DNA of 17,568 bases from a virus. Its lineage: Duplodnaviria > Heunggongvirae > Uroviricota > Caudoviricetes. Shown one piece after another: positions 12,001-15,000 of the stretch (the stretch's first letter is position 1; every line of letters starts with the position of its first letter). The position numbers are program-made. Where the stretch lies: the IMG/VR virus record IMGVR_UViG_2698536618_000023; one strand, 5' to 3'.

Positions 12001-15000
12001 ATATTCAGAACAACAAAGGATTCAGTCATTGACGCATATTGCATCATCACCCGATGCAGCAATCAGCCAGCTACCTGCCTTACCTGTAAGCTGCTTAATC
12101 AGGGCGAGCAATGACTCAATCTCACCCTCAGTCATTTCACCTGTGTTACCCATCATCAGAGAACAAATAAGTTCTGCCTGCATTGCGCTTTTTGCTGCTT
12201 CATCAACAGTCATATCGGAAAAATCACACATGAATTACTCCTCATCCTGAATACATGTCACTGCGTGGATAATTACGCCGGATAAACCGGCTTTAGCTGA
12301 TTTGTTAATTACTGTGCTGATTGCAGCCTGGACGTTTTCGGCCTTCACGTTCTGCGTGATGCCAACGGTATAGCCGCGCTTGTTAACAGCACGGGAAAAG
12401 ACGCGGAAGGTTTTAAGCATGAGTCACCTCCTGACGGATACGGGCGACAAAAATCAGATGTGCGTGCGGATACAGCCATGTGAAAGGCTCCCAATTTAAT
12501 GTTAAGGAGTCTCGCTACTACGCTGCTAAACATGGTGGCGAGACGTAACAGGGTTAGCAGACTGGCAAATTGGGAAACCAGCGAGCGCAAAGGCTCCCCC
12601 GTTACGCCCCGCCATAATGCGGGTATGGGTAGGTTTACGGACACAAAAAAACCGCTTATCGGATATGGGCGGCTGTCCGCCAATTTATTCAGGCTGCTAA
12701 ACCCGGTCGCCATGTGGGCGACTCCGGCATCATACAGCCCGAAAGAAGAGGCGATCAACATGTTTTTATCCATGTGATGCCTCCTGACGGATACGGGCGG
12801 CGAATACAGCAACGCAACCTGACGGGCAACGGTTACGCGCTTCGCGTTCCGTCCAGGCGGTTACGTGGATGATTTGGGATTCTGACGCGCCAAAGATGAT
12901 AAAGCGCCAGATAAAGGCAGTCTGAGAATGTACGAGGGTAGGGGTAGTAGCCATGTTGGCAGCCTCCTTACAGTGATGAATAACGTCACCGCAGGAGTTC
13001 CTACGCTCACAATGGGCGGTGACACTGGCGGGGGTAGGAATACCGGACTGTAAGGACTCCGGCCTACCTTTCGGTAGCCCCGCCAGCATCACCATTGTTT
13101 GCTGGTGGCGCTGTGCAAAATGCAACTCGTGAAATGACTGGATGGTGCACGAGTACGCACAATACACAACGCCATTGATATGGCGTAAAGCGCTGGCAGA
13201 AAAAAAGACGCTTCTGGCGTCATTTATCGCCTTACAGTTAAACGGGTTCCTACGCCCGATCCCCGTTTTATAAGGGATAGCTTCAGTATATGCCGCTTTT
13301 TTGCTTAAGTGGTCGGATGTGTTGCGAGAAAAGTTTGTGCGAAAAATACCTGCGTTTTCTTTGAAAGCACATAATAACATCACGTTATTTATGTTTATGC
13401 AGTGTGTCGCAAAGCAACCTGAATCATCACGCAAATTACAACCATAAAAAATACCTGCGCTGTGATATGAGGTACTACAGCGCACCGCTTTACGGGTACA
13501 GACAATGACAAATGAAGAACTACAGGAAATCGCATTATCCATACTTGAGCGACAGCGCGAAAAAGCACAACGGCAAAGGAGGTTGTTACTTAATCCACTG
13601 CCACTCACCAGGCCAACACGATTTGCCCTTGAGGCTTTTGTCGAGAAATACCCACGGCGGTTAAAAGCCACTAAAAACCGACCGCCTGGCTGATAGCCTT
13701 GTCCACCAGCTACACTCATGGCATAGTTGGTGATGCGCTTGATTTCCTTTATCTCCACTGGCGACCCTTTCGTGGTCGCCTTTGTTTTGCCTGCCATTCC
13801 TGCATCATGCGGATATTCACGCCGTACAGGGCCACCAGCGCGATAATTTGATAAAGCCTCCTTCTGATAATGCTTAACGTGTTTCATGCGCTCAGCGGCG
13901 AAATGGCTCACGATATGGCGCATGTAATCAGCATGGTTGATGCTCACCTGTGCGAACTTATCCGCAGTATCGATGTACAGGGCGGCAGCGTTGCGGATGT
14001 CAGGCATGTTCACGTTCTCCCAGGCGACGTGCCAGCCAGAATCAAACTGTTCAATATTTACACTTTGGCTCCCCCGTTTCTGGGAATCAAAGTACAAATT
14101 TTCTACAGCCTCAAAATCCACACCTTTTTTAAATCCGTATTCCTCAATACGCCCTTTAATCCAGGTGGTGAAATCACGGCCTACACCGAGCGCTTTATGC
14201 AGTGCGCGTGCGCTGACAACGCCCGTTTCATATCTGCCAATAATGCCAGGTGATACCGGAATAATTGCGGCGAAATCATAATTACGCATGATTCACCCCC
14301 AGAGACGGCGCTGACGTCATCAGGCTGGCGAACGTCTCCATGCGGCGAGCAACTTCCCGCACCGCTTCGGTCGGTGTCATGCCGTTCTGTATCGCCTCGT
14401 TAAATGCTGCCTGCTCGATTTTCTGCATGACTATCAGTAAGCCTAACTGTTGCTCTCCCGCGCTCTGACGCTCGCCTACAGCCAGCCCAGCGAAGCGATT
14501 TTCAGTGCGGGCAAGGTTGATGTAATGGTGACGTTCTGCGCCCAGTGCTTTAAGCCCGTCACGGCTTTCGTGATAGCCTGGCAGATATTCGCGACGGACT
14601 GGTTCAGCGGCGCGATGCTTCGCGAATGCCTTCGTAACATCCAGCTTGAACTGGTTGATACGTTCTGCGTCACGCCCACGGATAACGCGTAACAGATAGT
14701 CAAGCTGTAGCTCATTCAGCAAATAACTAATTTCAGGACGACCGCGCTTGCGGCCAGATTTTCCCGATTTCAAATAGGTTAATTCCTTGACTGACTGGCG
14801 AGGCAGTGAGCCAAGCTCGCGCAATCTGGATTGATGAGATTTAATCGTCGCAATGATACTTTCGTGTTGTATTCCTGCTCGCTCAGAAATAACGCGGGAA
14901 TCAATACGCGACTCTGCTTTGTGGCGAATCAATATATCGTTCTGGCTGATTTCAGGCTGAATGAAGCCCTGCCCCTGTACGGGCATATTCGGACGTTTCA

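Follow-up and report, generated by a model that had tools for sequence, protein, structure and literature searches.

Two putative antisense RNA immunity cassettes, of P4 and P1/P7 type, in tandem upstream of the replication genes of a probable P4-like satellite

The immunity RNAs of P1/P7 (c4) and P4 (cI) are classic regulators, but they have been studied as one RNA per element. The virus record IMGVR_UViG_2698536618_000023 from IMG/VR (17,568 nucleotides [nt]; hereafter the window, by which we mean this whole stretch of DNA) carries two such modules one behind the other. An initial annotation had described two C4/CI-type modules between 12413 and 13240, and all of its coordinates proved correct when we read 12300-13400 on the minus strand. 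Our analysis suggests that this region probably represents two RNA immunity cassettes of a satellite resembling P4 and the phage-inducible chromosomal islands (PICIs), arranged in tandem on the minus strand upstream of a replication operon. This degree of confidence applies jointly to the identity of the cassettes, the locks that they would impose and the bypass of these locks.

Two C4 RNA genes, each behind an IsrK-like leader

The Rfam C4 model comprises an outer stem (stem P1), a tetraloop hairpin (P2) and a hairpin with a 12-nt loop (P3). The scan with this model (RF01695, gathering score 45) that the initial annotation had proposed was clearly positive for both modules, in agreement with its view of two C4/CI-type modules sharing one architecture. 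C4-1 scored 70.3 bits (E 3e-12) and C4-2 scored 74.1 bits (E 4e-13), each over the full model (positions 1-87). The minimum free energy fold of C4-1 (-49.3 kcal/mol, z -6.0) reproduced the model structure, as did the fold of C4-2 (-45.8 kcal/mol, z -5.8), and the cloverleaf of about 62 nt with two hairpins noticed earlier corresponds to the C4 core. In P1/P7, the 5' end of C4 is matured by RNase P to give an RNA of about 77 nt; the resemblance of both copies to this system is one of sequence, with AUGG at the outer stem's 5' end and CCA immediately beyond that stem on the 3' side. Module 1 is composed of the following features.

13285-13290, minus strand: -10-like hexamer TATACT, separated by 6 nt from the IsrK-like leader downstream
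13201-13278, minus strand: IsrK/seqA-like leader, with hairpin 1, hairpin 2 carrying a1, then b1 and a terminator
13246-13253, minus strand: a1, GTAGGAAC (GTAGGAA(C)), in the loop of leader hairpin 2
13230-13238, minus strand: b1, ACTGTAAGG, single-stranded, including CTGTAAGG at 13230-13237
13200-13221, minus strand: leader terminator, hairpin GACGC/GCGTC plus U7, also found in the terminator scan
13100-13199, minus strand: spacer between leader terminator and C4-1, filled by a long stable hairpin
13012-13099, minus strand: C4-1 antisense RNA gene, P4 cI lineage
13047-13056, minus strand: b' of C4-1, TCCTTACAGT, in the P3 loop, including TCCTTACAG at 13048-13056
13034-13040, minus strand: a' of C4-1, TTCCTAC, single-stranded, between P3 and the outer stem
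12985-13023, minus strand: hairpin GTCACCGC/GCGGTGAC with a 23-nt loop that presents a2
12997-13004, minus strand: a2, GTAGGAAC, the same heptamer as in a1
12963-12974, minus strand: b2, ACTGTAAGGA, overlapping the icd1 Shine-Dalgarno (SD) sequence AAGGAGG
12766-12954, minus strand: icd1, a 62-amino-acid gene of the Icd/Kil family, homologue of P4 kil and P1/P7 icd

In alignments to the c4-a1b1 model, the hexamer TATACT occupies the position of TATAGT in P4. A usable -35 is lacking in module 1, since some 24 nt of P4 PLE, among them the -35 TTGCCT, have no counterpart here (window 13291-13330 versus P4 8700-8750). The same gap is seen in the relatives L001 and L204 (loci that we retrieved are numbered L), and the first modules of the arrays L016, L033 and L074 retain TTGATC-18-TATGAT. 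The leader of module 1 matched Rfam isrK (RF01394) with 50.0 bits (E 2e-9), exactly at the gathering score of 50, and this match was listed in the E-value-mode scan of 12200-13600 and not in the gathering scan of the whole window; its fold has an energy of -26.3 kcal/mol (z -2.9). The spacer hairpin (-37.5 kcal/mol, z -4.3) ends in GCGCCACCA, as does C4 itself, and matched no Rfam family. A similar hairpin occurs in L040 (1000-1089; z -4.4), the P4 spacer is not significantly structured, and the spacer is optional, being absent from close relatives and only 23 nt long in L204. The outer C4-1 stem and the a2 hairpin overlap, the former by its 3' strand and the latter by its 5' arm, and an alternative fold of the a2 hairpin region sequesters the SD instead. 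In P7, the equivalent hairpin has compensating arms. Icd1 belongs to the phage_ICD_like family (NCBIfam NF033153, 59.8 bits, cut-off 25).

Module 2 repeats this order.

12729-12758, minus strand: promoter-like site TTGATC-18-TATGAT, from the promoter scan
12645-12722, minus strand: IsrK/seqA-like leader, with hairpin 1, hairpin 2 carrying a1, then b1 and U7
12694-12700, minus strand: a1, TTAGCAG, in the loop of leader hairpin 2
12680-12686, minus strand: b1, AAATTGG
12645-12651, minus strand: U7 of the leader end, behind a weak interrupted hairpin
12531-12619, minus strand: C4-2 antisense RNA gene, P1/P7 c4 lineage
12567-12575, minus strand: b' of C4-2, TCCCAATTT, in the loop
12554-12560, minus strand: a' of C4-2, CTGCTAA, identical to the P7 a'
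12509-12544, minus strand: hairpin GTCTCGC/GCGAGAC with a 22-nt loop that presents a2
12523-12529, minus strand: a2, TTAGCAG
12488-12497, minus strand: b2, AAATTGGGA, overlapping the SD GGGAG of the icd2 start
12345-12479, minus strand: icd2 remnant, a frameshifted 44-codon open reading frame (ORF) with its ATG at 12479, ending 75 nt inside the next gene

In module 2, 6 nt separate the -10 TATGAT (12729-12734) from the 5' end of the IsrK-like leader. This promoter-like site is positionally homologous to TTGACC-17-TATAGT ahead of P7 c4, and TTGnnn-18-TATnnT sites likewise precede the later modules of L016, L033 and L040. The stems of 7 to 8 bp with loops of 22 to 23 nt reported earlier are real (12985-13023 and 12509-12544), with the added properties that they overlap the outer C4 stem on its 3' strand and present a2 in their loops. 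The partial target and the hairpin with U7, listed there as separate parts, are also present and together make up the IsrK/seqA-like leader. The a' boxes, the IsrK-like identity of the leaders, the -10 boxes and the long ORFs in frame with icd had escaped notice.

Covariation supports a two-box recognition code

Both modules harbor exact complements of 7 to 10 nt at all four sites (a1, b1, a2 and b2), with b2 lying over the icd ribosome-binding site. The b2 of module 1 is an exact 10-nt complement of the C4-1 loop and contains CTGTAAGGA (12965-12973) inside TAAGGAGG, while that of module 2 is an exact 9-nt complement of the C4-2 loop (12489-12497). The loop-target pairs TCCTTACAG/CTGTAAGGA and TCCCAATTT/AAATTGGGA, the 8-nt recurrence CTGTAAGG in module 1 and the positions of AAATTGG and T7 in module 2 were thus all as first annotated. 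Specificity does not, however, reside in one loop, as had been assumed, but in two parts, since the a' box and its partners a1 and a2 had been overlooked. Written as RNA, the code of cassette 1 is a' UUCCUAC and b' UCCUUACAGU, and that of cassette 2 is a' CUGCUAA and b' UCCCAAUUU.

The closest relative of the segment, in Escherichia coli STEC2018-553 (L001), is 97.5% identical and does not differ at all through module 1. In its module 2, the loop UCCCAAUUU is replaced by UCCUAUCUG, and this change is accompanied by changes in b1 (AAAUUGG(GA) to CAGAUAG(GA)) and in b2 (AAAUUGGGA to CAGAUAGGA). Two compensating 1-nt indels also separate the window from L001 in module 2 (alignment columns 738 and 825), one in the loop of the leader terminator and the other in the b' loop, so that the frame of ORF2 (see below) is kept overall. 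Between the two indels, the window and L001 use different frames, both of them open, over 87 nt, and the RNA elements are conserved.

This behavior extends well beyond one relative. Scanning IMG/VR for the P7-type a' combined with any loop yielded 120 loci with 23 different b' loops, and each of the 23 has an exact 7- to 10-nt complement downstream at a fixed offset and a 7- to 8-nt complement upstream. When all fetched loci were pooled, we counted 40 distinct (b',a') types with nine a' boxes, all of which match their own four sites. The longest cognate complements averaged 7.2 nt (b1), 8.3 nt (b2), 7.0 nt (a1) and 7.0 nt (a2) over the 40 types, compared to means of 3.4 to 5.0 nt in 994 non-cognate pairings. 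Covariation thus supports the predicted pairings. Among the pooled loci, the same b' was found with different a' boxes (TTTCCCAATTTG with CTGCTAA and CTGTCAA, TTTCTTCAGTGT with AAGGCTAA and TACGCCAA, and TTCCCTTGATTG with AGTCCTAA and TGTGAGAA), indicating that the two recognition boxes reassort independently.

Duplex energies point in the same direction. Within the window, cognate duplexes reached -10.7 to -15.5 kcal/mol (b) and -8.5 to -10.0 kcal/mol (a), compared to -3.2 to -9.2 kcal/mol for non-cognate ones. On the b2 region of module 1, the C4-1 loop gave -15.5 kcal/mol and the C4-2 loop -7.4 kcal/mol; conversely, the C4-1 loop gave -9.2 kcal/mol on the downstream region of module 2, where the cognate b2 duplex gave -12.8 kcal/mol. 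Because the non-cognate duplexes are weak, the modules should not cross-react. Together with the complement lengths, this upholds the earlier claim of different, non-cross-matching specificities.

The two cassettes appear to descend from different lineages

The layout had been taken for a duplication with diverged loops. We rejected a local duplication: the two C4 RNAs are only 48% identical, which argues against a recent one, and modules 1 and 2 align better to P4 and P7, respectively. The comparison to P1 c4-icd and P4 seqA-cI-seqC logic, by contrast, is borne out by these alignments, and the array is a combination of a cassette from the P4 lineage (module 1) and one from the P1/P7 lineage (module 2).

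Module 1 aligns end to end with the P4 PLE-seqA-cI-seqC-kil region. Common to both are the -10, a leader with a GACGC..GCGTC-U terminator, a spacer of about 100 nt, the P3 stem, a2 and b2 over GGAGG, and the start MATT... (GGAGGCTGCCAnCATGGCTAC) of an Icd/Kil gene of 62 to 65 amino acids. The differences in the a and b boxes are compensatory and amount to a different immunity type, and P4 PLE has a -35 that module 1 lacks. P4 itself matched Rfam isrK (seqA, 8615-8692, 60.8 bits) and C4 (8420-8507), and P4 Kil (76.1 bits) and P7 Icd (52.7 bits) belong to the same phage_ICD_like family as Icd1. The Icd of P1 reportedly inhibits cell division by acting on FtsZ (PMC11897509). P4 is an integrative satellite with one module, to which the window adds a second, P1/P7-type module. 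Furthermore, the long ORF is coupled to an alpA homologue in P4, whereas here it is coupled to a Rha-family gene and has an AntA N-terminal domain. Deposited phage genomes gave just two weak matches to the lineage of module 1, both in Klebsiella phages.

Module 2 matches the c4 region of P7, and of P1-like phages related to it, at 81% identity and has an identical a' (CUGCUAA). It shares with P7 the two-hairpin a1b1 leader, the hairpin presenting a2, the b2 on the icd SD and the position of the promoter. The two-box (a', b') logic, which makes P1 and P7 heteroimmune, is common to both window modules. It has been described for P1/P7 c4 (Weinberg et al. 2010 supplement) and can be read directly from the P7 sequence. 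In P1/P7, icd is followed by the coupled antirepressor gene ant; here there is no ant, module 2 being followed by small ORFs and a primase gene, and the sole AntA-like domain of the window lies upstream, at the N terminus of a 507-amino-acid ORF. The b' box of module 2 is unlike that of every P1-like contig sampled, only the a' box being in common. Cross-talk of module 2 with P1-like phages would be speculative. Several P1-like phages likewise show two matching places, and in the P1-like contigs L014 (6935-7022) and L030 (8454-8541), a second, divergent C4 (57.6 bits with our own model) lies on the opposite strand, 6 to 7 kb from the immI c4.

A further likeness is the isrK-orf45 (STnc1160)-anrP region of Salmonella Gifsy-1, in which an IsrK-like leader with a terminator is followed by a processed C4-like RNA within a translated ORF that is coupled to the gene behind it; with Rfam isrK, the window leaders score at (module 1) and below (module 2) the gathering score. 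In Gifsy-1, transcripts that read through were shown by experiment to be activated for translation by the short leader RNA (PMC4825925). Gifsy-1 is, however, a lambdoid prophage with a single module and no icd, which controls an antiterminator cascade rather than replication.

Both RNA genes are embedded in reading frames that continue into icd

12766-14289, minus strand: 507-amino-acid "Bro-network" ORF running from an AntA N-terminal domain through Phage_ASH to Icd1; contains all of module 1
12345-12773, minus strand: ORF2, its ATG overlapping the icd1 stop (ATGGATAA); spans all of module 2, in frame with the start of icd2

In the 507-amino-acid ORF, which contains 13291-12955 and of which icd1 is the in-frame 3' end, Pfam AntA matches residues 25-68 and Pfam Phage_ASH residues 334-455 (69.8 bits). 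The equivalent of ORF2 in L001 is annotated as a 154-amino-acid "Icd-like" coding sequence. Of 38 specificity types, 31 have an icd frame that stays open across C4, and the other two frames are always closed. Such an open icd frame is seen in nearly all satellites but not in most P1-like phages, in which it is closed just upstream of icd.

As here, P4 has a long upstream ORF in frame with the small gene: eta (8812 to 8168) and kil (8365 to 8168, 65 amino acids) have the same geometry as the 507-amino-acid ORF and icd1, the 507-amino-acid ORF being the analogue of eta with its nested kil. Since the arrangement is known from P4, we rejected the idea that an ORF running through C4 is a novelty. 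Translation of kil or eta reportedly prevents Rho-dependent termination at timm, an immunity-sensitive terminator within kil. In P4, transcripts from the internal constitutive promoter end under immunity, whereas those that start at a regulated promoter upstream read through, with eta being translated (PMC10111431, excerpt).

Phage_ASH and the PHROG "transcriptional repressor/regulator" families phrog_6928, 995, 821, 3960 and 29966 match the translation of 12925-13290. In RefSeq relatives, the same DNA is annotated as "ash family protein" pseudogenes or over-long "Icd-like" proteins, with no RNA gene. These Ash and repressor families seem largely to track an RNA gene embedded in an eta-like ORF.

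The second icd gene has been lost by a private deletion

The 20-mer CGCCCGTATCCGTCAGGAGG occurs exactly twice in the window (none expected from 200 shuffles), at the end of both modules, where it supplies the ribosome-binding site of the next gene as originally noted.

12780-12799, minus strand: copy 1, last icd1 codons (ARIRQE) and the GGAGG serving ORF2
12427-12446, minus strand: copy 2, former icd2 3' end and the GGAGG serving the 61-amino-acid gene that starts at 12420

The second icd was described as reduced to a remnant, and a remnant it is: compared to L001, icd2 has lost 104 nt between 8-bp direct repeats (CCGCACGC), the surviving copy lying at 12462-12469. Neither the remnant (44 amino acids) nor ORF2 (142 amino acids) matched phage_ICD_like, compared to 51.2 bits for the intact Icd2 of L001. 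It is not, however, part of the design of the array. All other related arrays keep icd2 intact, and a query spanning the deletion junction gave no single-piece match among the matches listed for 5,426 complete E. coli genomes, each of which spans 225 nt in two pieces. Because it is absent from the related arrays and from the matches listed, we take the deletion to be private, and it is probably recent. A conserved "leader peptide" was likewise rejected as an explanation of the remnant, which results from a private deletion between 8-bp repeats. The regulatory part of module 2 is intact, from the promoter and leader through C4-2, a2 and b2 to the SD and start codon.

Tandem arrays recur as mixtures of different cassettes

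Using Rfam and a covariance model built here, we found same-strand arrays at 15 loci with 11 distinct compositions. Fourteen of them consist of two modules about 480 nt apart, and the remaining one, L040, of three modules about 350 nt apart with one ORF of more than 2 kb running through all three C4 genes. In L040 (830-2300), the a' boxes are AUUUCCA, CUGCUAA and CUGUCAA, the three b' loops are all different, and of the first two icd genes only short remnants are left, which are fused. First modules carry P4-type a' boxes of six kinds, later modules have the P7 (CUGCUAA) or the P1 (CUGUCAA) a' box, and none of the 15 arrays repeats an a' or a b'. The window's own modules also occur in other combinations, module 2 behind two other first modules (L033, L074) and module 1 ahead of another second module (L001).

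A second C4 lies downstream in 9 of 37 IMG/VR loci anchored on Icd1-like genes with at least 87% identity, a sample that is not unbiased. The junction from icd1 to module 2 was found at 80% coverage or more in at least 75 of the 5,426 complete E. coli genomes, and 19 genomes carry most of the whole 1.1-kb segment. Single E. coli genomes harbor up to five to six C4-type loci.

The most similar island overall, in E. coli OkiPb01711 at tRNA-Gly (L204, 98.5% identity), has one chimeric module, suggesting that modules behave as recombining cassettes. In L204 (12965-14107), a promoter and leader of module 1 type are followed by a C4 of different specificity (a' UGUGGUAA, b' UCCUCUAAC), and the gene behind it is of icd2 type. 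Between b2 and the loop of this module there is a single mismatch (TCAGAGGA versus TTAGAGGA), and the whole is annotated as a 380-amino-acid "Icd-like protein". The icd 3' end with its 20-mer and the conserved start region (GAGCCTTTCACATGGCTGTA) are plausible recombination joints.

Icd-like genes also occur on their own. A profile search of the genome contigs with the Icd alignment found one locus only, L003 of Shigella flexneri, which has no C4. Many Icd-like genes in L161-L203 and L003 are 76 to 85% identical to Icd1, and neither Rfam nor the model built here detected a C4 upstream of them. In L166, L190 and L200, such a C4-less Icd-like gene is followed by a P1/P7-type C4 module, and in L016, L033 and L074, an Icd-like start also lies upstream of the first module.

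A model of two RNA locks with a translational bypass

The genes that would be controlled by the array lie directly downstream.

12235-12420, 12022-12231 and 11786-11977, minus strand: three small ORFs from the ORF list
9786-11609, minus strand: D5/P4-family primase-helicase, 607 amino acids (Pfam D5_N/DUF5906/Pox_D5)
9786-12420, minus strand: the block formed by the small ORFs and the primase gene

The small ORFs match PHROG families that are all of unknown function. The primase scored 95 bits with the NCBIfam model "primase, P4 family", under its cut-off of 108.7, and its presence agrees with the original placement of the modules ahead of replication genes; in P4, too, the immunity region lies upstream of the primase (alpha) operon.

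By analogy to the homologous systems, each cassette would be transcribed from its own -10. Most transcripts would stop at the leader terminator, yielding a short RNA with a1 and b1, and those reading through would be processed to a stable C4 RNA of about 77 to 88 nt; in P1/P7, C4 is released by RNase P (via citing work). The a' and b' boxes of C4 would then pair with a2 and b2, so that icd translation is blocked, Rho-dependent termination follows and the downstream genes are silent. The leader RNA would compete for C4 through a1 and b1 and relieve the block, a competition that has been proposed before (Weinberg et al. 2010 supplement). Since the RNAs of the modules do not match each other's targets, each would lock its own cassette only. 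Having its own promoter-like site, module 2 would be the lock closest to the small ORFs and the primase gene and control these, and module 1 would lock icd1 and its own read-through, or whatever transcription it feeds downstream. Of the two independent checkpoints in series first envisaged, module 2 may thus well be a proximal gate for the replication genes, but module 1 would gate icd1 and its own transcripts rather than stand as a further checkpoint in a series.

A coupled chain would lead from Rha to the 507-amino-acid ORF, to ORF2 and to the next gene, with both cassettes inside ORFs in frame with icd. Transcripts that start upstream of Rha and are translated straight through would escape both locks, as in P4 eta/kil, and we consider such a bypass likely.

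Several observations weigh against this model. The model takes its transcript ends, the processing by RNase P, the dependence on Rho and the repression itself from homologues. As module 1 has no -35, C4-1 may be weakly made or reliant on upstream transcription. The leader terminator of module 2 is modeled as a weak, interrupted hairpin, and the leader itself scored 37.6 bits with Rfam isrK (E 3e-6), under the gathering score. With Rfam c4-a1b1 (RF03163, threshold 46.7), both modules stayed below the threshold (module 1, 22.2 bits at 13239-13291; module 2, 32.4 bits at 12686-12735), although the two hairpins and the placement of a1 and b1 are visible in both leaders; P4 itself scored 44.1 bits, also below the threshold. 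Common ancestry, as opposed to selection, may account in part for the continuity of the ORFs across C4, and a few satellite variants carry in-frame stops through C4. In the window, moreover, the icd2 deletion shifts the frame of ORF2, so that its coupling to the next gene is unlike that in all relatives. Finally, the most similar island has a single module, indicating that the second is dispensable.

What the second cassette might contribute

Plausible contributions of a second cassette are another immunity identity that acts in trans, another Icd paralogue or another input for derepression. It is possible, if somewhat doubtful, that the array is kept mainly because its C4 RNAs act in trans on other elements of matching specificity, for instance satellites that arrive or already share the cell or P1-like plasmid prophages, which would confer two identities rather than a tighter lock; this is compatible with the locks and bypass proposed above and does not exclude them. 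C4 and cI RNAs are trans-acting immunity factors in P1/P7 and P4 (PMC3632133, excerpt), and the number of C4-type loci that one E. coli genome can hold is consistent with such a role. So are the 40 or more specificities with independently reassorted a and b boxes, as under diversifying selection for immunity type, the mixture of specificities in every array and the P7 or P1 a' box of the later modules. Against it, none of the sampled P1-like contigs shares a b' loop with a satellite module, and a 7-nt a match alone is unlikely to suffice.

More tentatively still, and rather improbably as a whole, stacks of two or three orthogonal cassettes might be multi-key immunity loci that use an a x b code of at least 40 addresses, always with a P4-type cassette followed by P1/P7-type ones, and serve as an RNA sensor or exclusion panel rather than as a redundant lock. 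If so, one island would hold several immunity identities at once, and each cassette would offer a separate way in by which an IsrK-like decoy RNA of matching specificity, brought by a helper or competitor on its arrival, could switch on the replication genes.

Alternatively, the arrays might be a neutral by-product of cassettes being shuffled at conserved joints, the extra ones adding no function and module 2 already decaying here. The single chimeric module of the otherwise 98.5% identical island, the recurrence of the window modules in other combinations (three first modules ahead of module 2), the shared 20-mer flanking the unit, the loss of icd2 and the tandem arrangement of about a quarter of the Icd1-anchored loci would all fit. 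Yet every module in 15 of 15 arrays, including module 2 of the window, has kept exact a1/b1/a2/b2 complementarity, the deletion is private and removes coding sequence only, and random assortment would sometimes have repeated a specificity among the 11 compositions. We consider this explanation distinctly unlikely.

It is highly improbable that what is conserved is a Bro-type protein with domains of the Ash family or of a "transcriptional repressor", the RNA folds being incidental: the Phage_ASH and PHROG matches to 12925-13290 and the open reading frame are what such a view would expect, but the C4 covariance scores lie 25 to 29 bits over the threshold with compensatory stem changes, three-site covariation of 7- to 10-nt boxes would be meaningless for a protein, the window and L001 differ in frame over 87 nt of module 2 and yet conserve the RNA elements there, P1/P7 c4 and P4 cI products are RNAs (Citron and Schuster 1990, via citing work), and translation of the long ORF is compatible with an RNA function, as in P4 eta.

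Relation to described elements

A single IsrK-C4-icd/kil module is known, and Rfam C4 and isrK matches inside Bro genes have already been described for Gram-negative PICIs and helper-embedded PICIs (PMC10111431, excerpt), as have IsrK-C4 systems of P4-like prophages (PMC3632133, excerpt). The excerpts of these two papers do not mention tandem arrays, orthogonal specificities in one island or a x b combinatorics, and in the open-access literature, as far as its accessible parts go, we found no description of tandem C4 arrays, of P4-type and P1/P7-type cassettes in one element or of the a x b diversity. The stacked orthogonal array therefore looks new, although a prior description is possible. 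Its anatomy is solid, and its putative function is inferred from P1/P7, P4 and Gifsy-1.

If the arrays are functional, satellites would combine P4 and P1/P7 cassettes as exchangeable parts, immunity specificity would be an address combined from two boxes, for which E. coli alone has dozens of alleles, and replication would be controlled by at least two separately addressable RNA locks with a translational bypass. This provides a testable model for competition among satellites and between satellites and helpers, as well as a natural set of orthogonal antisense regulators. In practical terms, the region is routinely misannotated ("Ash family", "transcriptional repressor", over-long "Icd-like"), and its RNA genes are left unannotated.

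Gene content of the island

16315-17568, minus strand: integrase
between the integrase and Rha-family genes, minus strand: ORF of 239 amino acids, function not assigned
14282-15001, minus strand: Rha-family gene, its stop overlapped by the start of the 507-amino-acid ORF
past the primase gene, minus strand, in this order: SSB, a ProQ/FinO-family protein and PerC

Judged from its genes alone, the element displays PICI/P4-like satellite traits, namely, an integrase, Rha and AntA/Ash genes, a primase and SSB. The "Integration, Bro, Replication" order of integrase, Rha/AntA/Ash, primase and SSB is the same as in Gram-negative PICIs (PMC10111431, excerpt). The related islands measure about 13 kb and lie next to yicC/dinD or tRNA-Gly.

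PerC is followed by a YedE/YeeE-type sulphur-transport gene (4838-6076, minus strand) and a Q antiterminator gene, and further along by a 543-amino-acid integrase-family protein (1613-3244, minus strand) and a KilA-N protein (1-564, minus strand). The genes of the region 1-6076, beyond the PerC and Q genes, are absent from L001 and L204, suggesting that a different element or a junction probably begins there. Just downstream of SSB, the window encodes a ProQ/FinO-family RNA chaperone (8361-8828, minus strand; Pfam ProQ, 86 bits), which is of interest in an element whose immunity would rest on antisense RNA pairing, and this gene is kept in both L001 and L204.

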